Virus record (IMG/VR): IMGVR_UViG_3300021979_000004
Span: 32,001-96,000 of that record
Source: a virus
Lineage: Duplodnaviria; Caudoviricetes
Length of the DNA stretch: 64,000 bases
Strand: one strand, 5' to 3'
Shown: positions 9,516 to 61,017 of the stretch, piece by piece
Position numbering within the stretch: the stretch's first letter is position 1
Layout: each line of letters begins with the position of its first letter
Notes under the pieces: model-generated
Told to the model about the DNA's origin: nothing
Databases searched by the model: none
The model's input: the letters and a program-made list of their open reading frames with translations, nothing else
Position numbers and translations under genes: made by a program

Positions 9516-9530
9516 AATTGGAGCATTACT

Positions 9531-9743: not shown

Positions 9744-9744
9744 T

Positions 9745-10554: not shown

Positions 10555-10599
10555 TATTTTTTCAATGCTATAATGATTTATCAATAAAGGGGATGTATT

Positions 10600-10875: not shown

Positions 10876-10921
10876 AGATAATATTCCTGTATTATTAATA
10901 ATAAATCAAGGGAGAAATCTT

Positions 10922-25301: not shown

Positions 25302-25528
25302 GAAGTCCTAAGATCGAAAAAGTAAAGAGACAACTAGATAACTAGGAATAAGGGGGGTAGGTTATGTAATACTTTAAACTTAATAATATTTTAAATATAT
25401 AGATAGAGTAAACTTAGACAAATGAAAAAGTGTAAAAGAGAATCTAACTAATATAGGAGAAATTATTATGCGTTAATACATAACTTATAATACTTTTTAA
25501 TTTTCAAAATATCTAAGACGAAGAAAAG

Positions 25529-25557
25529 AAAAAGGGGTCAATTAAGACCCCTTTTTT
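25529..25557. terminator. bidirectional terminator
   Basis: AAAAAGGGGTC/GACCCCTTTTT. Confidence 0.85.
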
Positions 25558-26414
25558 ATTTTTAGTACTTCAGAAAGAAAGTCGTTGAAATTCTCAGCAT
25601 ATACTGCCGCTATCTCATCTGCTTGAATCATAATCTCTTCGTTATTAATATCATGCATTGATTGAGTAACTTCAATACTATTAACATAGTTATTGAACTG
25701 CTTGAATATTTTCTTTCCATATTCATAAAAACGCTTCTCTAGAATCTTCACATCACTCTGCTTATAGTTACTAATCCCTTCTGGATCGTTGTAATATTCA
25801 GATGCCATCTTACGTGCTAACTTTTTAAGAGACTTATCAAATGTCTTTAGATTCTTAAAATCGAATTCATATCTTTCGAAGGTATCAGTTAGACTTTCCA
25901 TGATCATTTCATCGTAAGTATCTTGGAATTGTAATAGAACTTCATTGACAATAAAGAATATCATATCACTGTCGGTATTGTAATGTGCAGTAAAATCTTT
26001 AACATTTTCACTATAAAACAAACGATAATCGCCTAATGGAAACAGTACATATGGGTTGCCATATTCTGACGCTGTTTTTATATTCTTATCAGCAAAGATA
26101 AGATTTCTAATTGGGACACCAAACTTTTCGCTTGATAGCATGTTTACATATTTGTGAATTTCTATATTAGTATCAGTGGGAATACGATTCTCACTGTATG
26201 GCGTAATAACAAGATATGGAGTTGTATATTTGTGTGATCCACGAAAAATATTGGCAAACTCATTCACTAAGTTATCGTTTTCCAAGTCTTCAGGTTCGAG
26301 TGTTTTTAATTGCATACTGTACATTTCGTTGAAGTACTTTGAGTTAGCAACACGTTCTATGATCTGCCTATAGTTTCCTTGGTTGTCGTCTTCTAATAAA
26401 TGTTTTATTAGCAT
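25542..26414 (-). CDS. late protein, ADP-ribosyltransferase-like fold (tentative); paralog of the next gene
   Basis: MLIKHLLE start; IFRG...LIFA...YGNPYVLFPLGDY. Confidence 0.7.
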   Translation of the reverse strand: MLIKHLLEDDNQGNYRQIIERVANSKYFNEMYSMQLKTLEPEDLENDNLVNEFANIFRGSHKYTTPYLVITPYSENRIPTDTNIEIHKYVNMLSSEKFGVPIRNLIFADKNIKTASEYGNPYVLFPLGDYRLFYSENVKDFTAHYNTDSDMIFFIVNEVLLQFQDTYDEMIMESLTDTFERYEFDFKNLKTFDKSLKKLARKMASEYYNDPEGISNYKQSDVKILEKRFYEYGKKIFKQFNNYVNSIEVTQSMHDINNEEIMIQADEIAAVYAENFNDFLSEVLKIKKGS

Positions 26415-32332: not shown

Positions 32333-32650
32333 ATGATTAATAGTTGCCAATTAGAATCTGTCGTAGAACGTTTAAATACTGCGTTTGAAAAAACAGAAAA
32401 AGACTACGATAAAATTCTTAAAGATATTAGCTTAAATGAGTCTACGTTAATGAACAAGATTGAATCTGATCTGGATGACCTTTCTAGGAAGTTTGAGGCC
32501 GCTAAGAGAGGACTTCAGCTTGTAAACAAGCTTTCCATGGGGATGACAAAACTAAAGCATACACAGCGTGTGATGAGCAATCTAAGCACTCTTAGAAGCA
32601 GTATCTTAAACCTAGAGAAGAAGGTAAAAGAAATGCTTTCTAAAGCTTAA
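32333..32650 (+). CDS. coiled-coil protein
   Basis: AAGGAG RBS. Confidence 0.75.
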   Translation: MINSCQLESVVERLNTAFEKTEKDYDKILKDISLNESTLMNKIESDLDDLSRKFEAAKRGLQLVNKLSMGMTKLKHTQRVMSNLSTLRSSILNLEKKVKEMLSKA

Positions 32651-33021
32651 ACAATGTGAACAAACTTCTTTAGAAATTGACTTTCATTATCCCTCATGTA
32701 TTCATACTTCGAGGGATTTGTTATTTTAATGCGGTTATTATCGTGAACACTTATCAATAGTTTACAACGTATAACAAACTCTTTATAAACTGTGTCGTCG
32801 GTAGGAATATAACTGGTAACCGTAGTACTATCTTTACTGCTTTCAAAACAATCAACCTGTACTTTGAAGCCACATGGTATTTGCATTACATCCTTAAAGT
32901 ATTCTCGAATGTATTCCTGTATCAAGTGTTTGTAATCAGAAATGTCAGACGAAGCAGATTCATGGATAGAAACAATAACCATACCAAAATTGTAATAGTA
33001 ATGACGAAATTCTTCACTCAC
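32647..33021 (-). CDS. KLK-motif array protein 17
   Basis: NNRIKITNPSKY. Confidence 0.75.
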   Translation of the reverse strand: MSEEFRHYYYNFGMVIVSIHESASSDISDYKHLIQEYIREYFKDVMQIPCGFKVQVDCFESSKDSTTVTSYIPTDDTVYKEFVIRCKLLISVHDNNRIKITNPSKYEYMRDNESQFLKKFVHIV

Positions 33022-33347
33022 AAAAAGTCTTCCTTACATACTAATTGAGGGTGTTCTTTTCTCAAGTTTACATAAAGGTTCATATGTTTTAATTTAAAAT
33101 ATTGTAGAGAACGTTTATTTAAAAACTGTACTCTTATAACATATGCATCATAATGTCTACTGTAAAAAACATTCCCATAACTACTTTTAATTGTTGGATA
33201 GGTTATTTTAGTGAAAGCGTACCCGTAAAGTATTTGGTTGATACTTTTCACTTTCTGATTCATGTCATCTTCAGAAACATGATCAGGCTTCTTTATCTTG
33301 TAGTAATACGTCAGTTCTTTCTTCATTACTCGACAAATACCTTCCAA
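33018..33347 (-). CDS. KLK-motif array protein 16
   Basis: LQYFKLKHMNLY. Confidence 0.75.
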   Translation of the reverse strand: MEGICRVMKKELTYYYKIKKPDHVSEDDMNQKVKSINQILYGYAFTKITYPTIKSSYGNVFYSRHYDAYVIRVQFLNKRSLQYFKLKHMNLYVNLRKEHPQLVCKEDFL

Positions 33348-33822
33348 GATATTTATCGTTTTGAGTAATGATCATCTTGTTGATTCTATTGGAATTGTCA
33401 AAGTTAAGCTCAAACACAACGTAAGATTCTATGGCTAACAAGGTATACCGTTTATGTTCACTATCTGCAATCACACAGTCTATAGACCTTGAGTTATCCA
33501 TATAATGCTGAACCTTAGAATCTGGGTCTGTTTGGCATCTTCGGAAAGATACAAACCCTTCGAAATCAGACATATCTCTTTTTGAAAAATGCTCCCTAAC
33601 TTCTCTGTAAATTTCTTCAGACACATTTTTACGATTAGAGTTATCCGAGACTTCAGGAATAAGTAAAGTAATCATCATAGAAAATAATACTTCAATTGAC
33701 GTGTCGCCTGTACGTATAAAAGAAACTGGCTTAAACTTTATATACTTGTCATGTATAGACATTTCACTGCATAATCCACCAGACCGGAGCAAACATTTAT
33801 GGTATAAGTTAAAATGTTTCAT
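33283..33822 (-). CDS. KLK-motif array protein 15 (weak motif)
   Basis: FELNFDNSNRINKMIITQNDKY. Confidence 0.7.
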   Translation of the reverse strand: MKHFNLYHKCLLRSGGLCSEMSIHDKYIKFKPVSFIRTGDTSIEVLFSMMITLLIPEVSDNSNRKNVSEEIYREVREHFSKRDMSDFEGFVSFRRCQTDPDSKVQHYMDNSRSIDCVIADSEHKRYTLLAIESYVVFELNFDNSNRINKMIITQNDKYLGRYLSSNEERTDVLLQDKEA

Positions 33823-33823
33823 A

Positions 33824-34153
33824 TCAGATAACTCCCAAAAATACTATAATGTAGTCCTGCTCACCGTCGTTTTTTATATCACGTTTGTATAGTTCTAACA
33901 ATTCTATCTTGTTGAGAAGCTTAAGCTTATTGAATATTGAAGATTTCTTGTCATTGAATGTTACGGTAGCTTCCATACTACTAAGAATATCTTTTCGATC
34001 AAACATATCAGTCGCGTCTTCGTTTACTTCAACCGTTTCGACTGAAGAATTGCTAGGTAAAAAAGATGTTATCAAGTAATCTTGTATAAATCCTGCGGTA
34101 GGAGGTGCATCACTCCTAGCCACAAAATACATTTTAAACTTAAGCGTATACAC
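33824..34153 (-). CDS. KLK-motif array protein 14
   Basis: IFNKLKLLN. Confidence 0.75.
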   Translation of the reverse strand: MYTLKFKMYFVARSDAPPTAGFIQDYLITSFLPSNSSVETVEVNEDATDMFDRKDILSSMEATVTFNDKKSSIFNKLKLLNKIELLELYKRDIKNDGEQDYIIVFLGVI

Positions 34154-34545
34154 TAATCGATCACCTTCATTTTTGAAAACATTTGATACTCATCTGGGTT
34201 GGACAATTTAAACTTATTTAACTCTTTCTGTGACTCGAATGCTAACGTGACTACTGCGTCAATCTGCATATAACAGTCAAATGTACTGATGTAGTAATCA
34301 TCAATGTAGTAGTCTTCTATTGACATCATGCGGTATATATCATGTTTAAAATTGTCTGACAAAAATCGATCAATATGACACTCTGCTACTTCGTATATAA
34401 GGTCAACAAAAATTTCTGACCTAGCGAACTCTTCCGTAATAACTTCGTGGAAGGGTTCTGTAGCATCTAACATTATCTTTGCAGAAAGCGTTACCTTTTT
34501 AGATTCGGATGTCATAGCACTTCTTAATCTTATCGGCCAAGTCAT
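34153..34545 (-). CDS. KLK-motif array protein 13
   Basis: LAFESQKELNKFKLSNPDEY. Confidence 0.8.
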   Translation of the reverse strand: MTWPIRLRSAMTSESKKVTLSAKIMLDATEPFHEVITEEFARSEIFVDLIYEVAECHIDRFLSDNFKHDIYRMMSIEDYYIDDYYISTFDCYMQIDAVVTLAFESQKELNKFKLSNPDEYQMFSKMKVID

Positions 34546-34876
34546 AGTTAATGAGTTTAATACGATTCAAATCAGATGCGTTGGAAATTTCGAATCCAAT
34601 CTTAACTTCACACTTACTTATAACGTTTCGCAAAACTTGTGGATAGCGACTAATTACAATTTTATCAAACCGCACTTCCTTACGGATATGATTTTCCAAT
34701 AACTCGTAAGCTTCGTCCATACTTTCCGATGACATTAGGTTGACTAACGACTTCAAGAACGTATGATCTGTGATACTGACAGGTAGGATAGGAGCCTTCA
34801 TCACACTAAACTTCATTCGAATAATATCATCTTTTTCAAGCTTCATAACTATTCCTCTTTTACAACATTGTAACAT
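34499..34876 (-). CDS. KLK-motif array protein 12
   Basis: FEISNASDLNRIKLINY. Confidence 0.75.
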   Translation of the reverse strand: MLQCCKRGIVMKLEKDDIIRMKFSVMKAPILPVSITDHTFLKSLVNLMSSESMDEAYELLENHIRKEVRFDKIVISRYPQVLRNVISKCEVKIGFEISNASDLNRIKLINYDLADKIKKCYDIRI

Positions 34877-34896
34877 ATCGACTTAAGTAATGCACC

Positions 34897-35379
34897 TCAA
34901 TTAGGAAGAACCATATCAATATCTATTGAGTACATAGTGGGTCCAGTTCCTTTTAAAATCTCTTGGTATATTTTTGCGTTTTTTAATTTAGCATAATTAT
35001 GATTAGAAAAGTCAGCGATATTGAATTTCACAGTGCTATATATAATATAATCATCTACCCATTCGTTAGGTCGTACCAGTGTATGTTCCAAAGGCTTACC
35101 TTTAAGACCGTTATCATCGATCCATTTCTGAGACTCTTTAGTAATCTCTTTCATGAAGTTTTTAATAGCAGTATCTTCGTCTACACCTTTCTCGCCTTTG
35201 AGATAATTATGCAATGCAAGACTGATATCAAATAAATCATCCTCACCATTAGAAGGATCAACAGTCTCGTCACCAATGGTGATTTTTTTTATAGAAAAGT
35301 TTAAGGTGATAAGAATACTTTCTTTTTGTTCAACTACATATACAATATTACCATTGTCTAGCTTTACAACTTCAGGCAT
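34897..35379 (-). CDS. KLK-motif array protein 11
   Basis: FNIADFSNHNYAKLKNAKIY. Confidence 0.75.
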   Translation of the reverse strand: MPEVVKLDNGNIVYVVEQKESILITLNFSIKKITIGDETVDPSNGEDDLFDISLALHNYLKGEKGVDEDTAIKNFMKEITKESQKWIDDNGLKGKPLEHTLVRPNEWVDDYIIYSTVKFNIADFSNHNYAKLKNAKIYQEILKGTGPTMYSIDIDMVLPN

Positions 35380-35900
35380 TAGTACTTCCCCATTATATAC
35401 CTTATTATGGATTCATTAGATAAGTCTTCTGATAAAACAGTATGAAGTGTTTTATCTTTTATCTTCATTAGATGTGCTTGCTTTTTAGGAATTTTAATAC
35501 AAATACGGTCGTATATTAGAAAACCAACTTCGTAAGCAAATGTCTGATGTATCTTTACTACACCTTGTCTGACAACATTTGAAAATGACGCAGAATGTTT
35601 CTGTCTGAATACATATGGTGATAGAAAGTCAGACATAGCAGAATACTCTTCATCCATACCCGAAACGACTTTTCTCTTTACTGTCATTTTGTAATCGTAT
35701 CCTTTTAGGAAATCCCTGATCATATTGTTTATCTTTCTATCTCGGTCTAGGTCTTTTACGAAGCTTTCTTTTAAGGTATTAACATATTTTTCAACTTTTT
35801 CTTCATTTTCAAAGTTATGATAATCGACATTTATCATTTCGTGGTCTACCATTTTTAGTAGATACATATAGTAATCTTCATTTTTCGATTTTATAGACAT
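35379..35900 (-). CDS. KLK-motif array protein 10
   Basis: IKIPKKQAHLMKIKDKTL. Confidence 0.75.
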   Translation of the reverse strand: MSIKSKNEDYYMYLLKMVDHEMINVDYHNFENEEKVEKYVNTLKESFVKDLDRDRKINNMIRDFLKGYDYKMTVKRKVVSGMDEEYSAMSDFLSPYVFRQKHSASFSNVVRQGVVKIHQTFAYEVGFLIYDRICIKIPKKQAHLMKIKDKTLHTVLSEDLSNESIIRYIMGKY

Positions 35901-36190
35901 TATGATTTTATTTCCACTATGTTATCTAATTGTGACATGAACTTGATTTTAAACTTATTAACATTATAAGTATCAGGGAATTGTAAAATTACCGTGCATG
36001 ATATTCGATAATCATGGCATTCAGTTGCTGTTTTATCAAAAAGCATTGGGTGGACTGTACACAATCCATCAAATTCATCCCCAACCCTATCTGAAATCAT
36101 TTGACGAATTTTAAAATCACTAAGGTCGTCTGGGTCGGGGATATGGTAAGTTCCTTTATGTTCCATAAGGAACAATCGTTCATCACTCAA
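35900..36190 (-). CDS. KLK-motif array protein 9
   Basis: LQFPDTYNVNKFKIKF. Confidence 0.75.
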   Translation of the reverse strand: MSDERLFLMEHKGTYHIPDPDDLSDFKIRQMISDRVGDEFDGLCTVHPMLFDKTATECHDYRISCTVILQFPDTYNVNKFKIKFMSQLDNIVEIKS

Positions 36191-36482
36191 CTTCTCTCTC
36201 CCTTATTTCATCTTCAAGTAAATTATATAAGTCAGGCTCTTTCATTTTAAGTAAGTTGAGCTTATTCTTTTCGAAATACAAGGTGAACCAAATATCAAAA
36301 ATAGATTGCTTTCTATCTCTCATATCCATATACATTTTCTTTTCTATAATGCAGTATTTTGAGAACTGTTCATTGATGGTATCAGAAGCATTACTCATTT
36401 CTGTACCTAAATCTACCTGCTTTATTTTTGCAATGCGATAATAGTTTATCACTGTTACGCATGTATATTTTGTAATAGTCAT
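36183..36482 (-). CDS. KLK-motif array protein 8
   Basis: LYFEKNKLNLLKMKEPDLY. Confidence 0.8.
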   Translation of the reverse strand: MTITKYTCVTVINYYRIAKIKQVDLGTEMSNASDTINEQFSKYCIIEKKMYMDMRDRKQSIFDIWFTLYFEKNKLNLLKMKEPDLYNLLEDEIREREVE

Positions 36483-36895
36483 AACTTTAACTTGTTTAAT
36501 AAATGTAACCTTTCGGAAAATAATTCATTATATGTTTTGGGGTTTTTCAACTTATATAAGTTCATTTCACGGTCAGATTCAAACGTAAAACGAAACTCTA
36601 TATACATTGCTTTATTAGGGAAAGAATACGCGCTGGTTAATGATTCAAGATATTCACTATTATATCCCATAGAAACAACTTCAAAGCTATCTGTGTCAGT
36701 CAATGACTTAATTAATGACTGACACACCCAATCCATACCTATATCTTCAGGTTTCATATCGTGCACATCGACACCATATAATTCCATGATACGGGCAGCA
36801 ATTACTTTTTCAGGAACTAGTGTGCCAAGTATTTTCGAGTTTATGTTCTCAAACATTTCACTTTCATTCAAGACCGGCTTTTTTACGCAACGCAT
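36479..36895 (-). CDS. KLK-motif array protein 7
   Basis: FTFESDREMNLYKLKNPKTY. Confidence 0.8.
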   Translation of the reverse strand: MRCVKKPVLNESEMFENINSKILGTLVPEKVIAARIMELYGVDVHDMKPEDIGMDWVCQSLIKSLTDTDSFEVVSMGYNSEYLESLTSAYSFPNKAMYIEFRFTFESDREMNLYKLKNPKTYNELFSERLHLLNKLKL

Positions 36896-37460
36896 TTACT
36901 GTTCCTCTGTCGTCAATACTATCTTTTGATTCTTGTATTATAACTTTATTAAACCATTCTTTGATTTTTTCTTCATTCTCATTATATTCGCCATTGAACA
37001 AACCGATATTTGTTAGTTCTGGATGCTTGAGCTTAAATTGGTTTTTATGTTTTCCTTCCTTGAGTCTTAGCTTATACGTATGTACTACCATCACATAGAC
37101 TGTGGTGGACTCTGCATAAAACTCATCGTCGTCATCGTCATCCCACGAATGAGATTCGACTTCACTGTGAACCGCTATGTTACGATCAACATCAATGTAT
37201 GATCCATATCTTTCTTCAATGATATCTGCAACTTTTTTTGAATAGTGGTTTACAAAACCACCATAAGCTTTTTCACAACGTTCACAAAAATCATCAATAA
37301 AGAATGCACGACATTCCTTTGTTCCATAGTGTATACGAAATCGCCTAAAACGCTTCAGTATCAGTTGTTCATTTTCATCATAACCACTTTCTTCGTCACG
37401 TTGATTAAGATACTCTATATACGGCGTTGGAGTTAACAACTCTACATTGATTGAATCCAC
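36864..37460 (-). CDS. KLK-motif array protein 6
   Basis: LRLKEGKHKNQFKLKHPEL. Confidence 0.8.
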   Translation of the reverse strand: MDSINVELLTPTPYIEYLNQRDEESGYDENEQLILKRFRRFRIHYGTKECRAFFIDDFCERCEKAYGGFVNHYSKKVADIIEERYGSYIDVDRNIAVHSEVESHSWDDDDDDEFYAESTTVYVMVVHTYKLRLKEGKHKNQFKLKHPELTNIGLFNGEYNENEEKIKEWFNKVIIQESKDSIDDRGTVNALRKKAGLE

Positions 37461-37930
37461 TCTTTATACTCCCAATAAGCCATTCTTTTATCAATACATT
37501 CTTGGTGAACAAACGCAGTAACAACTTCGAATGATTCGTCATACAAGTCATCACGGTAATGTTTTCCGTGTTTCAATTTTATACGATTGAGGGATTCCTT
37601 GTCAACGGTATTGGCCGTTATGATAGTGTTATAAACATAGGAATCATATATTCTTGTGGCAATCATATGCTCATCACCGTCGTCATCAACCTCTTGTTTT
37701 TTATCAAAATACTCTAAGAAGTCAGGATCATTAAAGAAAAGCTTAGACATAGCATGATTATTAGCTTTCATATAATCAGCAAACTGTCCATAACTAAGAT
37801 TTACCGACGACTTATAATCATCGACGTAATCTATATCAATACGTTTCAATGTGGTTTCAGTATTATCCTCATTAACTTCTTCAATGTAGTAGAGAAAGCA
37901 CATGTAATGCTCGTCGTCTACTTTAATCAT
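37442..37930 (-). CDS. KLK-motif array protein 5
   Basis: DKESLNRIKLKHGKHY. Confidence 0.8.
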   Translation of the reverse strand: MIKVDDEHYMCFLYYIEEVNEDNTETTLKRIDIDYVDDYKSSVNLSYGQFADYMKANNHAMSKLFFNDPDFLEYFDKKQEVDDDGDEHMIATRIYDSYVYNTIITANTVDKESLNRIKLKHGKHYRDDLYDESFEVVTAFVHQECIDKRMAYWEYKEWIQSM

Positions 37931-38268
37931 AAGTATTCTCCTACTAAATCGTGAACCCCGTATCTTTCACTGTTGTACGGAATTTCATATGGTTTTTCAT
38001 TAGGCGCTGATCTAAACTTTTGATATAGGTCAGGATATTTTAATTTGATTTTTCTAAACAATACTTCATTAAAAATTTCAACATCCATACTAACGTAACA
38101 TAGAGGATACGCTTTTGTTCCTCGAACTTCAATATCTGTAATTAAAATAAAAGAACAGTTTAATAGTTCTTCTAAAAACCCATGGTACTCAATCAATAGT
38201 TGTGACTTAAGCCACTCTGGGTTTTTGTAACCCAACAATATAATTCTATGCTTTGTTTCAAATATCAT
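37927..38268 (-). CDS. KLK-motif array protein 4
   Basis: VEIFNEVLFRKIKLKYPDLY. Confidence 0.8.
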   Translation of the reverse strand: MIFETKHRIILLGYKNPEWLKSQLLIEYHGFLEELLNCSFILITDIEVRGTKAYPLCYVSMDVEIFNEVLFRKIKLKYPDLYQKFRSAPNEKPYEIPYNSERYGVHDLVGEYL

Positions 38269-38677
38269 CAGTATCTTCGACTCTATAATCCTTGTAATAA
38301 TTTGGGTCTTTCAGTTTTATCAAGTTAATATTTTTACTACCCTTTGCTACAACCGCTTTTATAAAATATGTTACTGTGATGGTGTTGGGAGAGTCAAGCC
38401 TTCTCATGCCAGTATGACCCCAATTAGCTTCTACGTTTATAAAATCCATTTGTGATTCTCTAGAATACGAAACCGGATCGCAAATAATTTCTATTGGTTT
38501 TAGTTCATATCTAGCCCACAATTCTATAGCAGCTTGCTTTTTAACTTTTTTAATAATAGACTCTGCCATTAGGCATTCTTTTTCACTACTATTAAGCAAC
38601 AGTTCTACATCACTACCAGTGAACATGTCAGGAGTAATGCAAAAAACTATTGTATGTGGTCTGTATAATATTTTCAT
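38258..38677 (-). CDS. KLK-motif array protein 3
   Basis: KGSKNINLIKLKDPNYY. Confidence 0.8.
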   Translation of the reverse strand: MKILYRPHTIVFCITPDMFTGSDVELLLNSSEKECLMAESIIKKVKKQAAIELWARYELKPIEIICDPVSYSRESQMDFINVEANWGHTGMRRLDSPNTITVTYFIKAVVAKGSKNINLIKLKDPNYYKDYRVEDTDDI

Positions 38678-39108
38678 GTTTTATGTGAGCAATCTATCCC
38701 ATAGAAATACGAACCGTCACTGGTTGAAAAGTTTGCATATTTATGATTAATTAGCTTAGTCATAAAGTTATTTTGAATCTTTAATCTGTTAAAAGATTTG
38801 TTAGAAATCCACACTTTATAACACAACGTAAATGTACAGCATATCCCATCTGCTATAAAAAAGTATTCTGATCTAAAGTTTTCGGATAATTCAAAATCAT
38901 CGAAATCATCTACGAGCCAATCAGGTAAGCCACTATTATCAAAAACATAATTACGATTTTTGAATTCCCATTCTCTAATTATCTGGCTCATGTTTTTTAT
39001 AATTGAAACTTTCTTGAATTCCATAGGTATGAGAACATTCATTACTCGGAATTTTAGATACAAAAAGTTTTCATTGCTTGAAACTAAAGAAGGTTTGGTA
39101 GTAGTCAT
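38674..39108 (-). CDS. KLK-motif array protein 2
   Basis: VWISNKSFNRLKIQN. Confidence 0.75.
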   Translation of the reverse strand: MTTTKPSLVSSNENFLYLKFRVMNVLIPMEFKKVSIIKNMSQIIREWEFKNRNYVFDNSGLPDWLVDDFDDFELSENFRSEYFFIADGICCTFTLCYKVWISNKSFNRLKIQNNFMTKLINHKYANFSTSDGSYFYGIDCSHKT

Positions 39109-39475
39109 AATCCTTGATCTTTAACAAACGTAATTCGTTTTCACTTAGAGAAAGCTTGATTATTCCAGTTACATTAAAGTATAGCATAGCCCTTTGATTC
39201 TGTCCGGTGTTTACTTCACTTGACGCTATACTAAAGCTATTTGTCGTCAACGGGCTTACACATTCTAGAATTGCGCCATACTCTATATCATTCTGATATG
39301 CATGACCGTGTTCAATTAAAAACTTTAAATCAACACGATGTTTATATGCTTCCTCATAGTAATGGTTTGGATCGCCACACTTAGCTTTGTAATGTTGTTC
39401 TTGTATCTCATTACGTATAAAATTCGTGCTAGCTTTATACATAAATGTTCGATAAAGATTTATTGTTTTATCCAT
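39071..39475 (-). CDS. KLK-motif array protein 1
   Basis: LSLSENELRLLKIKDYDYY; probable ATG start (MDKTINL), since the track's TTG start is the promoter -35 box. Confidence 0.75.
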   Translation of the reverse strand: MDKTINLYRTFMYKASTNFIRNEIQEQHYKAKCGDPNHYYEEAYKHRVDLKFLIEHGHAYQNDIEYGAILECVSPLTTNSFSIASSEVNTGQNQRAMLYFNVTGIIKLSLSENELRLLKIKDYDYYQTFFSFKQ

Positions 39476-39512
39476 ATTTTTATAATGTGAGTAATGGAAT
39501 TCCCAACCTAAG

Positions 39513-39541
39513 AATATACTCCTAGAGCCTTGTACTGTCAA
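39513..39541 (-). promoter_or_regulatory. sigma70-type early promoter for the 17-gene array
   Basis: Minus strand TTGACA-17-TATATT. Confidence 0.8.
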
Positions 39542-39553: not shown

Positions 39554-39578
39554 ATGTTATAGATTTATAGGAGTGATC

Positions 39579-39908
39579 ATGAAATCTAATGAGAAGTATG
39601 AAATCTTAACGCCCACAGGATGGAAAGATTTTACAGGCGTTGAATATACTGGAATGAAACAAACATTGAAGATTACCTTAGATTCGGGTAAAGATATTGT
39701 ATGCACCCCAGAGCATAAACTGAAAGTTAATGACAAATATCTTACCGCAGAAAAGATTAAAGTTGGAGACACGATATCATCTGTGTCTTCGGATGTCCAT
39801 AAAGTAACTTCAATAACTGAACATGGAACATCTGCCTGCTATGATTTGGTAAATGTAGAAAATGATGATCACTCTTTTGTAATTCAAAATGATTTAATAT
39901 CTAGTAAC
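39579..39908 (+). mobile_element. C-fragment (110 aa) of an atypically split intein
   Basis: Starts at Met without block A; has block B (IVCTPEHKL), block F (CYDLVNV) and block G ..SSN|C. Confidence 0.82.
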
Positions 39909-41663
39909 TGCGATGAGCTTGCATTCGTTAACAAACGTATTGCTCTCGAATTCTGGACCTCTGTATTCCCCACTCTTTCCTGTGTAACTTACGATACTAT
40001 TATCCTGACTAAAGATGGTTTCATGAGAATTGGAGACGTTTTCAAAGATGTTGATTATAAACCGGGAGACTATTTCACCTTAGATAATTTCGAAGTATGG
40101 GGTAAGTATGGATTTGAAAAAGTATCACATGGTTATATCTCACCAAGTTCCGAAACTGTCATTGTTAGTCTGAAGAATGGACAGTCAGTTGAAGTAACAA
40201 AAGACCATCCATTGTTTGCTAACCGTAATGGTGGTGAAATGGTTCGTGCTGAAGATTTAAAAGTTGGTGATAAACTACGCGTAGATAAAGGCATGATGGT
40301 CGATTTCGGTGGGTTTACAGATTTCAAATGTTTAATTGAAACGGCACACGAAAATCCTGAAATAATACTTAATATGAGCTTCGAATGTTTCAAAAACCTT
40401 ATAGATTTCTTAGACTATAAAATTTATTGCGACAATCAACAAATGATGAATTGCTTTACGCAGGTTCTTAATAACTATGGGTATAATTATGAGTGTAAAG
40501 TTACTACGTTACACGTAAAAGAATGTGTTAGACAATATCGAACTGAATGGGTTGATATCGAATATATTTCCCAAGGCTGTACTAAAGTAACTTATGACTT
40601 TACGGTTCCTGCAACAAAAAGCTTTTTACAAAATGGTATTCTGGGTAGTAACACTGGCGGTTCATGTATTATCACTTCCACACCTACGGACGATGAAACT
40701 CTATTCGCTGACATATGGAAGAAAGCCAATGAAACTATGGATGAGTTCGGTAACACCACTGAGGTAGGTAGTAATGGTTTCAAAGCACTAAAAGTAAAGT
40801 GGGATGAACACCCTGATCGCGGTGAAGAATTCAAAGATTTAATGATTAAGCAGTTTGGTGAAGAGAAATTCAGACGTGAACATGAACTTGATTTCGTTGC
40901 AGAAGATGAAACCCTAATATCACCATTGTACTTGAGTGAAATGAAACACCAAGAACCTATAAAGAAAACAGGTCAGGTAAGATGGTATAAAAAGCTTGAT
41001 CGCAATAAAGTTTATTTTATAGGCTATGATCCAAGTCTAGGTACTGGTGGCGATAACTCTGCTATTCAAATATTTGAATTTCCAAGTATGGAACAAGTAG
41101 GTGAGTGGATGCATAATAAATCTGACGTTCCTACACAATTAAAAGTGTTGAAAAATATACTTAAAATGTTCGAGGATGCCGGTTTCGAAGAAGACAATGT
41201 ACGTTGGACTCTCGAAAATAATTCCATTGGTGAAGCACCATTGGTTCTTATTGAAGAATATGGTGAAGACGAATTCTTTGGATACTTCATGAGCGAACCA
41301 TACAATCCACGTCAACCTAGAGCGCGTTCTAGATTCAGAAAAGGGTTCAATACCAGCAACAGTAGTAAGCTTACTGCGTGTACTCGTTTCAAGCGTTGGG
41401 TTGAGAATGATAAGATGTTAATACATAGTAAGCCTATGATTAAAGAACTAAAAGGTTTCGTATCTCGTGGTAGAACATATAAAGCACGTGCTGGTGATAA
41501 CGATGACTTGGTTATGGCTACACTTCTATGTGTGAGGATGGCTATGATTACTATGCAGGAAGAAGATGAGTATATGGATGCGCTTGGTGTAGGCAATGAG
41601 ATAGATGACACTGAAAGTGATGACGATAGTGATTGGGATCAGCCATTGCCGGTTGTATTTTAA
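39579..41663 (+). CDS. terL: terminase large subunit, C-terminal part (Walker B to nuclease domain), with split-intein C-fragment and a cis intein
   Basis: CDELAFV Walker B, IITSTP motif III, IGYDPSLG / LENNSIG / NDDLVMA RNase H-like nuclease motifs; no Walker A in the ORF. Confidence 0.9.
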   Translation: MKSNEKYEILTPTGWKDFTGVEYTGMKQTLKITLDSGKDIVCTPEHKLKVNDKYLTAEKIKVGDTISSVSSDVHKVTSITEHGTSACYDLVNVENDDHSFVIQNDLISSNCDELAFVNKRIALEFWTSVFPTLSCVTYDTIILTKDGFMRIGDVFKDVDYKPGDYFTLDNFEVWGKYGFEKVSHGYISPSSETVIVSLKNGQSVEVTKDHPLFANRNGGEMVRAEDLKVGDKLRVDKGMMVDFGGFTDFKCLIETAHENPEIILNMSFECFKNLIDFLDYKIYCDNQQMMNCFTQVLNNYGYNYECKVTTLHVKECVRQYRTEWVDIEYISQGCTKVTYDFTVPATKSFLQNGILGSNTGGSCIITSTPTDDETLFADIWKKANETMDEFGNTTEVGSNGFKALKVKWDEHPDRGEEFKDLMIKQFGEEKFRREHELDFVAEDETLISPLYLSEMKHQEPIKKTGQVRWYKKLDRNKVYFIGYDPSLGTGGDNSAIQIFEFPSMEQVGEWMHNKSDVPTQLKVLKNILKMFEDAGFEEDNVRWTLENNSIGEAPLVLIEEYGEDEFFGYFMSEPYNPRQPRARSRFRKGFNTSNSSKLTACTRFKRWVENDKMLIHSKPMIKELKGFVSRGRTYKARAGDNDDLVMATLLCVRMAMITMQEEDEYMDALGVGNEIDDTESDDDSDWDQPLPVVF
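39981..40652 (+). mobile_element. cis intein (224 aa) with degenerate endonuclease region
   Basis: CVTYDTIILTKDG block A, VTKDHPLF block B, TYDFTV..NGILGSN|T. Confidence 0.9.
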
Positions 41664-48378: not shown

Positions 48379-48923
48379 TAGTATTTACCACCGTTTTTAT
48401 TACTGTATTTCCGGTAAGCTTCCCAAATGTCGTCTGATGGTAAATGTTCATCTTCGTCTTTTACATAATCATCATAGTTATACATCGACTTTATAATTTC
48501 TTCTTTCTGCTTAAGAGCTTCCGTATACTTGTCTTTCATTGCAGTTATCATTTTTACTTTTTCTAAATACTGCCTTTCTTCTTCACGTTGCCTTGCTCGA
48601 CTATCGTCAAAGAACTTTGGATTAGACATCTTCATGAAATTTCTGGCTTTTACAAATGAATCTGAGTCACCACATACTTTCTCAATGGTTGAAACATCTT
48701 CAATATGCTCCACTGACTTCATGATATCTATCATTGTTGAACGATTTATTGCATTTCCTACGTTTGGTCGTACATCGTCTTCAAGGTAACCAAATGCCCC
48801 ATCTACTGATACCTTACTCATTTCAAGACAGGATTTTACTAAATCATTAACTTCATCAATACTGTTTGTTCTTACTAAGGAATTGATAGCCATTCCTAAA
48901 ATCTTTTCACTATCTTTAGCCAC
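48378..48923 (-). CDS. hypothetical protein
   Basis: GTG start with AGGAGG RBS. Confidence 0.8.
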   Translation of the reverse strand: MAKDSEKILGMAINSLVRTNSIDEVNDLVKSCLEMSKVSVDGAFGYLEDDVRPNVGNAINRSTMIDIMKSVEHIEDVSTIEKVCGDSDSFVKARNFMKMSNPKFFDDSRARQREEERQYLEKVKMITAMKDKYTEALKQKEEIIKSMYNYDDYVKDEDEHLPSDDIWEAYRKYSNKNGGKY

Positions 48924-49527
48924 GGAATCCTCCTAGCGATTTCATAGTTGGTATATCACATGCTGATAATACCTCAATTCTACACTGATCCGACCTGACT
49001 TTTTCAGGTACGCTTGAAAACAAAATTTCTATTCTCAATAGTTCAACATTAATTTTCCCCGGTGTATCCATACCACCAAGTAATGTACAATTAGGTTTTT
49101 TCAATTTTAAATAATTTAACGTCCTTTTAATATCTTCAGAGTCTTTATTTATAACAAATACAGACTCCAAATCTATAAGATAAAAACCATCGTAAACATC
49201 TTCCAACATAATAAACTTTGCAATAATCTTGTTGCTGATTAATGGACCATAGTTACCTAACCCAAAGCAATAGTGGTTATTCAGAACATAACTTATGTAA
49301 TGCTTTATTAGGTCTTCTTTAATAACCCTTTCAGTGCAATATGCCATTGCATTTTCGAATGTATCTCCCTTATCAATCATATCCTTGCAGATTGCTAGAA
49401 TTGTGTAAATTCTAGTAGATTGTAAAGCTTTACGATATTTCTCAAGTGGTGCAAAATTTATGCCATATTTCAAGTTATTTCTAACATTCTTAGCTATAAC
49501 TTTTTTGAATGTATAAATGTCCATCAC
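48916..49527 (-). CDS. KLK-motif family protein, helical subtype
   Basis: IKRTLNYLKLKKP. Confidence 0.8.
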   Translation of the reverse strand: MMDIYTFKKVIAKNVRNNLKYGINFAPLEKYRKALQSTRIYTILAICKDMIDKGDTFENAMAYCTERVIKEDLIKHYISYVLNNHYCFGLGNYGPLISNKIIAKFIMLEDVYDGFYLIDLESVFVINKDSEDIKRTLNYLKLKKPNCTLLGGMDTPGKINVELLRIEILFSSVPEKVRSDQCRIEVLSACDIPTMKSLGGFRG

Positions 49528-49955
49528 ACGAATACCTTAGTCTTGGGACTTTTGATTTTCATATAGTTTAGTGCTTTCTTCACACAATTGGTATTTCTTA
49601 GTATTTCCCAAATAAGAACACCTTGACTATCTTTGCCCAACGCTGAACTTAGATATATCCCATTAGGGAAGTTCGTGGTTATATCACATGAAATAGCCTT
49701 TTTAATAAGAGCTTCAGCGAAAGTTGGTGTGAATATTAAATGAATATTTTCCTTAACAATCTTTGGTATGTAGCAACCTGTCAAACGATATAGAACCATG
49801 TCAATTACCATATCATTTTCAATGATACGCTTTCGGACTATGTTAAAAACATTGTCTCTAGACTTTCCTTGTGTTTTCCGTACCAAGGAATCCTCTATAA
49901 GGCGCATAGATTGATAGATGTAAAGCATACGATGTTTTGAATTAGATATTTCCAA
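49524..49955 (-). CDS. KLK-motif family protein, helical subtype
   Basis: VKKALNYMKIKSP. Confidence 0.8.
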   Translation of the reverse strand: MEISNSKHRMLYIYQSMRLIEDSLVRKTQGKSRDNVFNIVRKRIIENDMVIDMVLYRLTGCYIPKIVKENIHLIFTPTFAEALIKKAISCDITTNFPNGIYLSSALGKDSQGVLIWEILRNTNCVKKALNYMKIKSPKTKVFV

Positions 49956-49957
49956 TG

Positions 49958-50422
49958 TTATTCTCCCAAATCTAAGTCTTCACGAGGAAACTTTATCTTG
50001 ACGTAGTTTATTGACTTCTTCATAGAATCATGGTCTTTATTGTTTGGATACCAAGTATACCAAGATAGCCCTTGTTGGTTTCTAAACATGGTTCCCAACA
50101 TACACGCAAGATTACATGGGCCTTCTAGATAAGTGCCAGTTTGTTTAAGTAGGCATGTAGGTACTCTCTTTATGAACCTAGAAACAATCTCAGAAGTTAC
50201 AAAGTATGGCATGTTTATTCCAACTTTTCTTGGAATGAACTTGTTTTGGTTAATGTCCGTAAAATAGCAGAAAAATCGTATAAGGTTGAGGTCATCCCCG
50301 ACAAATTCATCGAATGTTTTCTTAGCCACATCAAACCCATAAAGTGACAGATCACTTTCAACAGTTTGTAGAAAGTAATACACTCTTAAGGCGTCAACTT
50401 TTTTCTTTGCTATTTCTTCCAT
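49958..50422 (-). CDS. KLK-motif family protein, helical subtype
   Basis: MKKSINYVKIKFP. Confidence 0.8.
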   Translation of the reverse strand: MEEIAKKKVDALRVYYFLQTVESDLSLYGFDVAKKTFDEFVGDDLNLIRFFCYFTDINQNKFIPRKVGINMPYFVTSEIVSRFIKRVPTCLLKQTGTYLEGPCNLACMLGTMFRNQQGLSWYTWYPNNKDHDSMKKSINYVKIKFPREDLDLGE

Positions 50423-50428
50423 AGGAAG

Positions 50429-50457
50429 ATGTTATCAGGAAATTTTAGGAAGGTCAA
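50429..50457 (-). promoter_or_regulatory. sigma70-type promoter
   Basis: Minus strand TTGACC-17-TAACAT. Confidence 0.6.
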
Positions 50458-50479
50458 TAAAAAAGGATGAGCTTTTGAC

Positions 50480-50638
50480 TCATCCTCTACGTACATGGTA
50501 GAAATTGCTTGGGCGAACAGTTCTTTTTGAATCGAAGATAGTATCTTTGGTAGCCCAATAGCTGATCCCGACAGATGCAAATCCTAAAGCAACTATAAGC
50601 CCAACAACTCCAACGTATAGAAGTGCTGCGCTAAACAT
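50480..50638 (-). CDS. small single-TM protein (52 aa)
   Basis: Read manually; AGGAG RBS; followed by AGGATGAG/CTCATCCT hairpin. Confidence 0.7.
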   Translation of the reverse strand: MFSAALLYVGVVGLIVALGFASVGISYWATKDTIFDSKRTVRPSNFYHVRRG

Positions 50639-50686
50639 AAATAATCTCCTAAATAGCCTAATTATTTATGTTCAAAATACGCTATT

Positions 50687-51250
50687 TTAAGCAGCTTGTG
50701 AATCAGTATTTGCACTTACAGGCATCAGTGAAAGATAGTCCACTATTTCATAGATAAAGCATAGGAAGCTCACCTTATCGATATAGACTCTTTCCATATC
50801 ATCCTCTCTCTCAACACCACTGCGAATGATTATTGGAAGGTCTAGTATATCTTGAATACCATAGTCGAGAATATTTTCCTCAACGTCGTTACCAATTCCA
50901 GAGTATACACTGATATTGGTATACGTTTCAGTACGGCACACACTCTCTTCATTGTAATAAAGCTCATGAATATATTCAAACGATAGGTAATTCAAACGAT
51001 GATTTCTGCCTAGTATATTTGAAGATTCCGTCATATTGATAAGCTCTTCTATAAAGCTATGAACCTTTTGTAGTTCAGGATACGCCTTAAGAGTCATTAT
51101 CAAGTCACGTACTGAATAAGTACGTTCCAGTTCAATACTCTCCTGAAGATACTGAATAATTGACGCATCCATGATTGGTGTGTTGATTATTTCTGGTTCT
51201 TCATAAGTGAATGCAATATTACCTTTCTTGTATAGAGATATATGTTCCAT
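50687..51250 (-). CDS. hypothetical acidic protein
   Basis: 187-aa ORF. Confidence 0.75.
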   Translation of the reverse strand: MEHISLYKKGNIAFTYEEPEIINTPIMDASIIQYLQESIELERTYSVRDLIMTLKAYPELQKVHSFIEELINMTESSNILGRNHRLNYLSFEYIHELYYNEESVCRTETYTNISVYSGIGNDVEENILDYGIQDILDLPIIIRSGVEREDDMERVYIDKVSFLCFIYEIVDYLSLMPVSANTDSQAA

Positions 51251-51277
51251 ACCATGTTCCTTCTATTATAATAGTAA

Positions 51278-51421
51278 TTATTTAAAGATTTTGAACCACC
51301 AACGATTAGAATACTTTTCGTAGAATGAATCGCTTACTGTGATGATTCTATAACAAAATAGGAGCTTGGTCGTGCAAAGACCAGCGAAGAGAATGAGTAG
51401 TGATAGGATGAGAATTGCCAT
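51278..51421 (-). CDS. small membrane protein (47 aa)
   Basis: Read manually; GGGAGG RBS. Confidence 0.6.
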   Translation of the reverse strand: MAILILSLLILFAGLCTTKLLFCYRIITVSDSFYEKYSNRWWFKIFK

Positions 51422-51487
51422 AGGAACCTCCCAATATATAACGTAAGTAAAAACACTAATATACTAAGATAATATATCAGTAACTAG

Positions 51488-51516
51488 AAAAAAGCAAGGG
51501 AGCGTCAAGCTCCCTT
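51488..51516 (-). terminator. terminator downstream of nadV
   Basis: AAGGGAGC/GCTCCCTT stem with U-tract on the minus strand. Confidence 0.75.
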
Positions 51517-51518
51517 TA

Positions 51519-52883
51519 TTACGCGGCTAGTTCTCTTATTTCATCGAAGGTTTGACGACGCTTAATCACACCATCTTCATACACTACTTCAAGTAGGTTG
51601 GAATCACCAGCAAAACTCTCTGGGACTGTCTTGTAGCCTTCATCCACATCTGGGACTAGTGCTAACCTACCTTTCTTAGAAGTCTTACCAGCGTCGGTCA
51701 CAGGGTCTTTAAAGACGTTTCGACCCTCGCCATTGACTTCGATGTAAGAGCATTTCATAGCGAACTTCTGAGTGTCACGGTTGTGGTCTTGTAGAAGTTT
51801 ACCACCCATACCGAATACAACATTCTCAACAGACCATCCGTTAGTTTTTAGGTTCTCGCAGATTCTACGGATCATTTCGATATCGATACCGTCACCCTGT
51901 AGAACACGAACCTTATCATTTAGAACTTTGTATCCTTTGGTATTCTTATAAGAACCAAACTTCTCATCTAGAGCGGTGATAACATCATAAACAACTTCAA
52001 TCGGATTGCCACTATCAGGACGAACTACTAACACACCGTCACGCTTTAGAATTTTATCTTTAAGCTTCTCACCAAAGATGTTGCTAACTGCATTGTAAAT
52101 GTCATAGCTATCTGCAACGATAGATAGAATACCAGTTGGGTTTTCATCAATTAGTTTCTCGTATGCAGCCGCTTCACCATCTTTACCGTGGGAGGTGATT
52201 GTGCTGTGTTCTGCCGCAACAACACTGTAAGCGCACACGTTAGAATCGTAGTAGCGCATAGCTGTTAGAATACCTTCCATAGTATCTGTACCGCTGAAGT
52301 TGATAAGGTGCGCTGCACCACCAATACCAGCAGTGGTATCAGAAGAAGCACCACGATAGCCGAAATCATGTAGTTTGAATGGTAGGCTATCGGTATTATC
52401 AGATGTTAGTTCTAGATATTTTTTAATAATTTTCTTGCATTCTTTACTGTAAGTTGCTACAGTAGATGCATACCATACGGCAGAAAGTAGACGTGGCTCT
52501 AAGAAAGATGGTAGCCAGTAAAATTCTGGTAGGGTATTTTCAATAACAGCAAGTACGTTTTTGACAGGTAGTACCATACCTTCTTTTACAGCACTGATCT
52601 TAATAGGTAGGTAGCCTAACTCAACGAGTGCTTTAGCACCTTCGTAGTTAAATGGTACGCCGTGTAGCTCAGTGAATGTTTTAGCTTCTTCAACATCCGC
52701 CATGGTTGGAAAATTGTCATTGATATCTTGAATAGCTTTCTGTAGGCCGAAGAATAATACTTCGTCAAACTTGCCGCCACGGCTTTCAATGTAAGAATAT
52801 ACTTTAGTAGTACCAGTTGGGTACTGGCTGAAGTGGGATAGTTTGTAGGAATCTGTTTTTAGAAAAAAGTTATTATAGTTCAT
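51519..52883 (-). CDS. nadV: nicotinamide phosphoribosyltransferase (NAMPT)
   Basis: TDSYKLSH, LHDFGYRG, AAEHS, VVRPDSG, QGDG, FGMGGKLLQ, KDPVTD.GK.SKKG motifs. Confidence 0.95.
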   Translation of the reverse strand: MNYNNFFLKTDSYKLSHFSQYPTGTTKVYSYIESRGGKFDEVLFFGLQKAIQDINDNFPTMADVEEAKTFTELHGVPFNYEGAKALVELGYLPIKISAVKEGMVLPVKNVLAVIENTLPEFYWLPSFLEPRLLSAVWYASTVATYSKECKKIIKKYLELTSDNTDSLPFKLHDFGYRGASSDTTAGIGGAAHLINFSGTDTMEGILTAMRYYDSNVCAYSVVAAEHSTITSHGKDGEAAAYEKLIDENPTGILSIVADSYDIYNAVSNIFGEKLKDKILKRDGVLVVRPDSGNPIEVVYDVITALDEKFGSYKNTKGYKVLNDKVRVLQGDGIDIEMIRRICENLKTNGWSVENVVFGMGGKLLQDHNRDTQKFAMKCSYIEVNGEGRNVFKDPVTDAGKTSKKGRLALVPDVDEGYKTVPESFAGDSNLLEVVYEDGVIKRRQTFDEIRELAA

Positions 52884-58345: not shown

Positions 58346-58600
58346 TTACTTTTTCCTATAGTGTTTGTGTAAGTTTTTAAGTTTGAATCTACCCATTGCA
58401 TGGGTGTCATCTTCTAGTATTATAACATGCACCTCTAAAAGTGCAACATCATTTCCAATTCCAATCATGTGTCTTGTGTAGAAACCGATGCCTTCAATCT
58501 CTCGGTCTACATACCTAAGAGAGTTTTCAATACCATTCTCAACACATCGACACTCGATACCTCGGATGTTGGTTATTTGTTTAGTTAGGAACCAATTCAT
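58346..58600 (-). CDS. KLK-motif family protein (AMGRFKLKN)
   Basis: 84-aa ORF. Confidence 0.7.
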   Translation of the reverse strand: MNWFLTKQITNIRGIECRCVENGIENSLRYVDREIEGIGFYTRHMIGIGNDVALLEVHVIILEDDTHAMGRFKLKNLHKHYRKK

Positions 58601-58685
58601 TTTCCGTTTTTGGAAACACGATGAACATATGTCTATTTTACATTCTTTAACATATGTCCATTCGTTGTAAGGTATATCTAACTTT

Positions 58686-59744
58686 TCACACTTCGTTTTT
58701 GTAGAAATAAACAGCCGCTCCTACGTTGACAGCAATTTGTAGAATAATAACAAGCAGGAATGTCCACCAACTAATTTTGTTTTCCCAAAGATAGCTTTTG
58801 AATTCTTCCATTGGACGACGCTTAAAATCACGCACTACGTTGTTTTTAACAATAAGCGCAAGCTTACCAGCAGTTAGGGTATCAACTTCACTAAGATCAT
58901 AGTCGATAGCCGGATTAACCTCTTGGTTTTTAGACCAGCCGAACGAGTAAGACCATGACACTTCAGGGAAATTCGGCGCACCGATAACAACTACCTGATC
59001 ATTCTTACGGCCATTACGCCATTCGTTACGCAGGTATTCACCGAACTCAGAGCGATCACTATTAACAATGACAACCACAACATTGACTTGTTTTTGACCA
59101 CCGATTTCTTTTAGAACATTACGCATAGCCAAATTATATTCTTCTTGCGTAGCTTTATTAGCACTTACACCACGGAAGATTACAGGCTTGGCACGGTAAT
59201 AGTCGTACACACTCGGATAGTTCGGAACCAGCTTTTGAAGGTCTGGATCGACACGATGATTCTTACGATATAGAAGTGAAGAATCTACGCCCTTAAGGTA
59301 ATCAACATAAGAGTTTTCCATCGCTACGTGTTCACCAACAATAACTTTAGAAAATCGTGGTGGTTCTTCAGTACCCTGACGATCTACACGATTAATACGA
59401 ATATCACCAACTGTAGTACGAACCATCCAGTCATAATCCCAATTGTGGTCATAATACGTAGTACAAACTCGGTTGTTACCAGTACCGCTACAGATTTCAT
59501 AGCTATGTTCACAACTTACTTGTACCTGCTCTTTCCCAACTACTTTTCCGTTTAGAATTTCGGTGTTGAACTTTCCACCAAATAGAACAACCAGAGTACA
59601 AACAACACTGAAAAGAACTGAGATAATTACGCTGATTCCAACTTCACGCCACGAGACTTTGTGAGGGAATGCAAAACGCATTACAAATGGTGCGACAATA
59701 GCAACCACTGTAATTCCAACAATAAGCCAAATAAATCCAATCAT
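58686..59744 (-). CDS. membrane protein with periplasmic TPM-like domain
   Basis: Two N-terminal TMs, W.NGRKND.VVVIG, C-terminal TM. Confidence 0.7.
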   Translation of the reverse strand: MIGFIWLIVGITVVAIVAPFVMRFAFPHKVSWREVGISVIISVLFSVVCTLVVLFGGKFNTEILNGKVVGKEQVQVSCEHSYEICSGTGNNRVCTTYYDHNWDYDWMVRTTVGDIRINRVDRQGTEEPPRFSKVIVGEHVAMENSYVDYLKGVDSSLLYRKNHRVDPDLQKLVPNYPSVYDYYRAKPVIFRGVSANKATQEEYNLAMRNVLKEIGGQKQVNVVVVIVNSDRSEFGEYLRNEWRNGRKNDQVVVIGAPNFPEVSWSYSFGWSKNQEVNPAIDYDLSEVDTLTAGKLALIVKNNVVRDFKRRPMEEFKSYLWENKISWWTFLLVIILQIAVNVGAAVYFYKNEV

Positions 59745-60849: not shown

Positions 60850-61017
60850 TTAACCATTCAGTTTGTTCTTATCCATGATTTCATCAACAAGGCCAAACGC
60901 TAGAGCTTCTTCTGCAACCATGTAATTGTCACGGTCACATGCAGCGTGAACTTCCTCTAGTGTCTTTCCAGTACAATCAGCATAGATTTCTTCTAGCCTT
61001 TGACGTGTACGTAGAAT
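60850..61017 (-). pseudogene. duplicated 3' end of clpP (~55 codons)
   Basis: [41 protein letters not shown] vs clp[42 protein letters not shown]. Confidence 0.9.

Follow-up and report, generated by a model that had tools for sequence, protein, structure and literature searches.

In the viral record IMGVR_UViG_3300021979_000004 (Caudoviricetes), we analysed a 64,000-nucleotide stretch, here called the window, which contains a tandem array of 17 small genes, o01 to o17. Their products share a C-terminal motif behind divergent N-terminal bodies. The array belongs to a family of at least 34 members in the record, joined by a conserved module of about 45 residues with a near-invariant Asn and Lys. 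Judging by best matches, the family has expanded independently in at least three related phage lineages. On balance, we think that it is probably an expanded, lineage-specific domain family with a shared Asn/Lys functional site, expressed early from sigma-70-type promoters and directed at the host.

Organization of the array

The array spans positions 32647 to 39541 on the minus strand. As an earlier sequence-only reading of this DNA had described, it consists of 17 consecutive open reading frames (ORFs) of 96-198 residues (longest-ORF lengths). That reading also called the genes overlap-coupled, which applies to 14 of the 16 junctions (overlaps of 1-65 nt) but not to the other two, which are gaps of 1 and 20 nt. 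The entries below rest on the ORF list, a Lys-anchored motif, a leave-one-out hidden Markov model (HMM) and the ratio of nonsynonymous to synonymous divergence (dN/dS) relative to L047, a near-identical Tara Oceans scaffold. All positions are those of the window.

39513-39541, minus: putative sigma-70-like promoter, TTGACA-17-TATATT, 11/12 match
39071-39541, minus: o17, motif RLLKIKDYDYY; 15.5 bits in the leave-one-out search
38674-39108, minus: o16, motif NRLKIQNN; weak by HMM, in the MAFFT alignment
38258-38677, minus: o15, motif NLIKLKDPNYY
37927-38268, minus: o14, motif RKIKLKYPDLY
37442-37930, minus: o13, motif NRIKLKHGKHY
36864-37460, minus: o12, motif NQFKLKHPEL; weak by HMM
36479-36895, minus: o11, motif NLYKLKNPKTY; first AlphaFold2 model
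36183-36482, minus: o10, motif NLLKMKEPDLY; 99 residues
35900-36190, minus: o09, motif NKFKIKFMSQL; weak by HMM
35379-35900, minus: o08, degenerate motif HLMKIKDK; weak by HMM
34897-35379, minus: o07, motif NYAKLKNAKIY
34499-34876, minus: o06, motif NRIKLINYDL
34153-34545, minus: o05, motif NKFKLSNPDEY; confident AlphaFold2 model
33824-34153, minus: o04, motif NKLKLLNK; weak by HMM
33283-33822, minus: o03, degenerate motif RINKMIITQ, likewise in the L001 orthologue (L001 is a 6.8-kb contig); weak by HMM
33018-33347, minus: o02, motif QYFKLKHMNLY; Asn in the L001 orthologue
32647-33021, minus: o01, the array's last gene, motif NRIKITNPSKY

The TTGACA-17-TATATT site ahead of o17 (39541..39513, minus strand) is present with 11 of 12 consensus matches and occupies the short intergenic region from which the array and the terminase gene diverge. 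That it is the array's only promoter, as had been supposed, is not supported, since another 11/12 site is found within the array (37605..37576). TTGACA-type sites are also found upstream of two dispersed loci, a three-member cluster and a tail-only ORF. Taken as a class, promoter-like sites are no more frequent in the region than in shuffles (39 against 40 ± 6.7). A scan for the late-promoter motif TATAAATA found none inside the array on the array's strand, a result of little weight given that this motif is not enriched genome-wide. According to the gene calls on L047, several array genes begin further downstream than the longest ORF. The start of o17 is probably the ATG at 39475, because its 156-residue longest ORF would overlap the promoter.

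A conserved module at the C-terminus

The motif counts of the sequence-only reading were reproduced: 16 of the 17 proteins carry hydrophobic-K-[LIM], and Asn stands three residues ahead of the Lys in 12-13. When anchored on the Lys, a longer pattern is found in all 17, consisting of an alternating hydrophobic strand that runs to a Phe, a spacer of 4-6 residues and h-N-x-h-K-[LIM]-K-x-P-x-x-Y, where h is hydrophobic. An aromatic residue precedes the strand in the conserved block. An unguided MAFFT alignment brings the motif columns of all 17 proteins into coincidence, and the distance from the motif to the C-terminus varies from 10 to 59 residues.

The motif exceeds what shuffled ORFs yield. 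When each protein was scored with an HMM of the 37-residue block built from the others (leave-one-out), 11 of the 17 reached 11.4-20.8 bits; 3,320 shuffled ORFs from this genome, matched in composition, reached 9.4 bits at most. The six weaker members nonetheless lie in the array and align. The regular expression N-x-h-K-[LIVM]-x matches 63 times in the ORFs of the record, compared with 23.7 ± 5.2 in shuffles.

We then aligned 59 sequences, of which 34 came from the window's record, nine from L002 (a 107-kb contig of a more distant uncultured relative) and 16 from L001. Conserved columns are an aromatic Y/F (52 sequences), F/L (46), the Asn (51), the Lys (57), L/I (53), the second Lys (41), Pro (31) and Tyr (42); otherwise the sequences share less than 20% identity. 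Together these columns delimit a module of about 45 residues that comprises the aromatic residue, a beta-hairpin and a helix-Pro-helix. The N-terminal parts were confirmed to lack detectable mutual similarity: when the first strand and helix were modelled by an HMM and each member was left out in turn, only about nine of 43 members scored at z>3. The isoelectric points of the members range from 4.6 to 9.7 with no trend, and net charge was rejected as a clue to DNA mimicry.

Selection on the proteins

Relative to L047, dN/dS is 0-0.23 for all 17 array genes (dS 0 to 1.1), the same range as in the flanking genes. Because the values are this low and like those of the neighbours, the array ORFs are, on this measure, real genes under purifying selection. 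Synonymous choice within the motif is free: Asn is encoded by AAT and AAC 19 and 18 times, Lys by AAA and AAG 19 and 18 times, and all six Leu codons are used. By codon usage, then, conservation of the motif acts at the protein level, and a promoter, coupling signal or slippery site is excluded because synonymous codons are free and the distance to the stop varies between 10 and 59 codons. Across 15 orthologue pairs, bodies are 40% identical and modules 48%. Since the bodies are nearly as conserved as the module, each body appears to be under its own constraint.

Members outside the array

The family extends beyond the 17-gene array described in the sequence-only reading, and the record contains at least 34 members. 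When the HMM was built from the array proteins alone, it found dispersed ORFs elsewhere in the record at 10-24 bits (shuffled maximum 9.4). By eye and with a full-length profile, at least 17 dispersed members were recognized in the 218-kb record, four of them within the window. The 34 members make up about 10% of the genes (34 of ~352 non-overlapping ORFs). The dispersed members in the window, one probable member and a larger protein with the motif are as follows.

8978-9391, plus: dispersed member, INKMKMKIP
9745-10131, plus: dispersed member, MNRLKLKNEKPEKLY
49527-49928, minus: dispersed member, LNYMKIKSP; 10.3 bits with the array-only HMM
49961-50422, minus: dispersed member, INYVKIKFP
58349-58720, minus: probable member, MGRFKLKNLHKHY, in which Gly replaces Asn; judged by eye only
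62651-63685, minus: tail-only protein of 344 residues, VLNYMKIKKG; without HMM support, two genes upstream of clpP

Four minus-strand ORFs outside the HMM set (58349-58720, 48381-48893, 48919-49524 and 62651-63685) carry the motif or a near variant, namely MGRFKLKNLHKHY, RNFMKMSNPKFF, LNYLKLKKPN and LNYMKIKKG. They may be diverged members or tail-only carriers. About six extra proteins in the record, some of 220-380 residues, bear the tail without HMM support, and a BLAST search of the record's larger tail-bearing proteins against phage SCTP-2 and L002 found no match.

Separate expansions in related phages

When 1.84 billion representative proteins were searched with a profile, the 11 matches all belonged to related uncultured phages; ten were orthologous to array members, and the remaining one came from a more distant phage. 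A homology search with the 59-sequence alignment likewise found orthologues in sister phages only. L001 has a colinear array whose genes are 21-73% identical to their orthologues in the window, as well as one additional member of 153 residues. On L047, an additional 67-residue gene lies between the o11 and o10 orthologues.

The nine L002 members are arranged in two runs. The larger, at 7652-10907, has six consecutive members directly after an S-AdoMet (S-adenosylmethionine) lyase gene; a few kb upstream of it are NUDIX, PTH2 and HNH genes. Salicola phage SCTP-2 has a tandem array at 298.9-302.9 kb, with the motif QHD-x-NRLKL. In both L002 and SCTP-2, the best match of every member lies in its own genome, which argues for a separate expansion in each lineage. 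On this pattern, the family has expanded independently in at least three related phage lineages. A profile search of phages PA5oct and Atu_ph07 gave no match, in an insensitive first pass that recovered one of at least four SCTP-2 members. Nor was there a match among 50,697 phage records to the array by megablast or to an L002 member by tblastn (E up to 1).

Predicted fold

With the 17-sequence alignment, AlphaFold2 modelled o11 at a mean predicted local distance difference test score (pLDDT) of 58 overall and 85-91 at residues 100-125. With the 59-sequence alignment, o05 reached a pLDDT of 82.2 and a predicted template modelling score of 0.69. The o05 model has strands at residues 18-31, 74-87 and 90-103 and helices at 38-65, 106-115 and 117-125. 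Helix 106-115 carries L-N-K-F-K-L-S and is followed by Pro117, and helix 117-125 carries Tyr120. The module is modelled as a compact domain (pLDDT 85-93). The sequence-only reading had pictured the motif as a constant docking tail; in the model it instead ends a folded module of about 45 residues as a helix of that same confidence.

The strand-helix-strand-strand order, with a three-stranded sheet on one helix, was found in the o05 model, that is, in one member. This topology is that of SHS2-type modules such as FtsA domain 1C, the Rpb7 N-terminal domain and dodecin, a likeness that is descriptive and does not imply membership. The VIA-align list was headed by FtsA domain 1C, Rpb7-like subunits, dodecins and SEA domains. 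Searches with Foldseek (PDB, BFVD and AFDB clusters), VIA-align wide and Atlas gave nothing above background. The only notable structure hits were to four entries of BFVD whose accessions begin with A0A248S (best E 4e-3) and which may be SCTP-2 proteins.

Sequence alone cannot decide between one fold and a shared tail. We favour a homologous domain because the block of about 45 residues includes the aromatic column and a strand, because the 59-sequence alignment raised model confidence over the whole chain, and because, by eye, an alternating strand can be seen at the N-terminus of most members.

A proposed shared functional site and its alternatives

In our proposal, the array is the largest cluster within a lineage-specific family that would have grown by repeated gene birth and loss. 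Each protein would be a small alpha/beta domain in which a variable body (strand, long helix, beta-hairpin) is joined to a conserved module, homologous in all members. This module would comprise an aromatic residue, a beta-strand that runs to Phe, the short helix h-N-x-h-K-h-K, a kink at Pro and a second, Tyr-bearing helix. The near-invariant Asn and Lys would most likely form one functional site that contacts the same ligand or partner in every paralogue. Bodies that are conserved between orthologues and unalignable between paralogues suggest that each copy has its own specificity. Lying behind sigma-70-type promoters and antisense to presumed late structural operons, the genes would be transcribed early by the host RNA polymerase, and the products would act on the host in takeover or counter-defence. 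We infer the common fold from one confident model, and the shared site, early timing and host-directed role from the evidence above. The docking family of the sequence-only reading thus stands in part: the family is real, expanded and without a known relative, and its C-terminal element is constant, while a free tail and a single array are not supported.

Several observations weigh against our proposal. Six of the 17 array proteins (o03, o04, o08, o09, o12 and o16) are not significant by the motif HMM alone. N-terminal homology is undetectable by sequence, so some bodies may be unrelated. The common fold comes from one confident model, and the N-terminal arrangement of the o11 model, of low confidence, differs from it. 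Early expression is read from consensus promoter matches, a class of site not enriched in the region. Finally, positive selection is not seen at the sampled divergence, which leaves no direct sign of an arms race.

The alternative that survives best, though we consider it unlikely, is a portable docking tail. In that case, N-x-h-K-h-K would be a transferable tether on unrelated bodies that leads to one hub, such as a Clp-type protease, and the proteins would be adaptors or timed substrates, like F-box or SspB-type adaptors. The unalignable bodies agree with this, as does the spread of the motif in SCTP-2, where it occurs in the last 60 residues of 31 ORFs (8.6 ± 2.6 expected) and in the last 25 residues of 18 (2.9 expected). 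Many of these carriers belong to the DUF4116-repeat proteins (PF13475, matched at 62 and 31 bits), whose body is of another kind, and the family-only HMM reaches three DUF4116-type tails of SCTP-2 at 9.7-12.8 bits; the likeness spans about six residues, however, and could be convergent. Outside the 34 members, ten ORFs of the window's record have a C-terminal motif, compared with 3.7 ± 2.0 expected. There is also a precedent in SspB, which tethers to ClpX by a short C-terminal segment (PMC9963277), and the window encodes a genuine ClpP (261.6 bits) two genes away from the tail-bearing 344-residue protein. Yet clpP was found in all four phages checked (the window's phage, SCTP-2, PA5oct and Atu_ph07), including the two in which the family was undetected, so co-occurrence is uninformative. 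Neither Lon nor a ClpX-type ATPase was found on the window's contig. Within the family, moreover, the motif is never parted from the preceding conserved strand. It is modelled as a packed helix (pLDDT >85) and not as a peptide that ends a disordered linker, and it lies 10-59 residues from the C-terminus.

At its furthest, this line of thought makes N-x-h-K-h-K a clade-specific tethering code by which dozens of early proteins on differing bodies, the small alpha/beta family here and the DUF4116-repeat proteins in SCTP-2, would plug into one hub, for example the phage ClpP with a host unfoldase. We regard such a code as a long shot. If it were true, each body would hand a different host or defence protein to the hub, and the family would be the bacterial-virus counterpart of the F-box/PRANC arsenals of poxviruses.

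A purely structural signature is a little less probable than a docking tail. The motif would then be the best-kept core of a fast-drifting fold, with no common partner or site. Five conserved hydrophobic positions (h before N, h before K, L/I, Y and the h at +3) follow a buried strand, and with the shallow alignment the module was the only confidently modelled part. Nevertheless, Lys in 57 and Asn in 51 of 59 sequences at below 20% identity would be unusual for packing alone, and amid unalignable bodies both seem to fit a shared site better than fold stability. The recurrence of the same short pattern on the DUF4116 proteins of SCTP-2 also speaks against a structural signature. That the motif is instead a DNA or RNA element (internal promoter, coupling signal or slippery site) in frame by chance, or that the ORFs are not genes, has next to no probability: in its favour, the motif is rich in A and sits towards the ends of genes that are packed tightly in an operon, but this reading is refuted by free synonymous sites, the variable stop distance, dN/dS far below 1 in 17 of 17 genes and conservation over a 40-residue protein block.

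The source phage and neighbouring genes

The window is taken from a linear virus record of 217,982 bp (CheckV completeness 73%), of which it covers bases 32001-96000, and the G+C content of the phage is near 34%. The phage's large terminase shares 51.6% identity with that of SCTP-2 (440 kb), a culturable relative; those of PA5oct and Atu_ph07 are more distant relatives. The same genes are present on L047 (401,220 bp) and on a 457,965-bp contig of a further relative. Because these two share its genes, the phage is probably marine, with a genome of about 400 kb. The terminase ORF (39573-41663, plus strand) aligns over its full length with the SCTP-2 terminase only, and PA5oct-type terminases match only residues 360-677. 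Precomputed hits for the orthologue on L047 include Pfam Intein_splicing. Between window positions 25542 and 44159, synonymous divergence from L047 ranges from 0 to ~1.9 and differs gene by gene, swings that suggest frequent recombination in the phage population.

The clpP gene lies at 61539-62135 on the minus strand (261.6 bits to PF00574). Downstream of it, a 75-residue ORF (60850-61077, minus strand) repeats ClpP profile positions 132-181, and an ORF with no Pfam hit (61129-61512, plus strand) lies between the two. SCTP-2 has a similar ORF beside its clpP. From this arrangement, the locus looks like an insertion, possibly of a homing endonuclease, that duplicated the 3' end of its target. 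Three genes downstream of clpP is a gene for a YqeY-like protein (59806-60243, minus strand; 76 bits to PF09424).

Comparison with known families and systems

The sequence-only reading could name no characterized family, and none was matched in searches of Pfam, PHROGs, NCBIfam, PADLOC and PDB profiles. Pfam gave only scattered sub-threshold noise for the 17 array proteins (E up to 0.1), and further members tested against Pfam and PHROGs matched no family either; PHROGs gave only isolated hits to families of unknown function (E 0.004-0.009). Among all 59 aligned sequences, NCBIfam gave no consistent hit, and the six different PADLOC families hit were each matched by one sequence of the 59, none of them consistently. 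The best PDB profile match, a fragment of NPL4 (E 0.02), was judged to be chance. An Imm/SUKH-type immunity protein was rejected, as the only match was Imm6 to one dispersed member (E 0.026, 14.8 bits against a cut-off of 25). F-box/PRANC membership was rejected for want of any such match in Pfam at E up to 0.1, and DUF4116 (PF13475) because none of the 17 proteins matched it (cut-off 24.9 bits). In the window's record, the best DUF4116 match was at chance level (11.9 bits), and there is no DUF4116 gene.

The likeness to SspB and to poxvirus adaptor arrays is one of concept only, with a phage clpP in the window. In SspB, the ClpX-binding segment follows a disordered C-terminal region (PMC9963277). 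Our motif, in contrast, comes immediately after the last strand, where the model places a helix, and the family has no SspB similarity in Pfam. The F-box/PRANC ankyrin arrays of poxviruses combine variable bodies with one constant C-terminal element for a common hub; unlike them, the family lacks F-box or PRANC similarity in Pfam and carries its motif inside a folded module. Many DUF4116 proteins of SCTP-2 end in hNK[LM]KLKxGP, which resembles the N-x-h-K-h-K-x-[PG] of the family. Their bodies are helical repeats above the Pfam threshold, whereas the window's proteins have no DUF4116 match. In SCTP-2 (MF360958, loci L024-L046), this repeat family has at least 25 BLAST-linked paralogues, for example at 25496-25915, 48856-52577, 396706-398907 and 418770-423686.

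About one gene in ten of a marine phage of some 400 kb would thus belong to a family without sequence or structural relatives, in which one Lys is kept in 57 of 59 sequences. Independent expansions, constraint on the bodies at the level of orthologues and one invariant site together suggest a diversified toolkit on a common mechanism. Identification of its partner, ligand or activity would account in one go for a sizeable block of giant-phage genes whose function is unknown, and the mechanism might reveal a new way for phages to reach many targets in the host. Should the motif prove purely structural, the family would be a further orphan expansion and no more.

The closest parallel is a zinc-ribbon family of about 35 copies in Bacillus phage G, a lineage-specific expansion in a jumbo phage (Iyer et al. 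2021, PMC7824862). Like those zinc ribbons, the family consists of dozens of small divergent paralogues, in arrays and dispersed, and of unknown function. Unlike them, it has no zinc ribbon, it has an invariant Asn/Lys helix, and it occurs in at least three lineages rather than one. In the literature, we found no description of the family, the invariant motif or its recurrence in three lineages. Expansion of small proteins in giant phages is already known, while the family, its motif and its recurrence in three lineages appear new within the literature searched.

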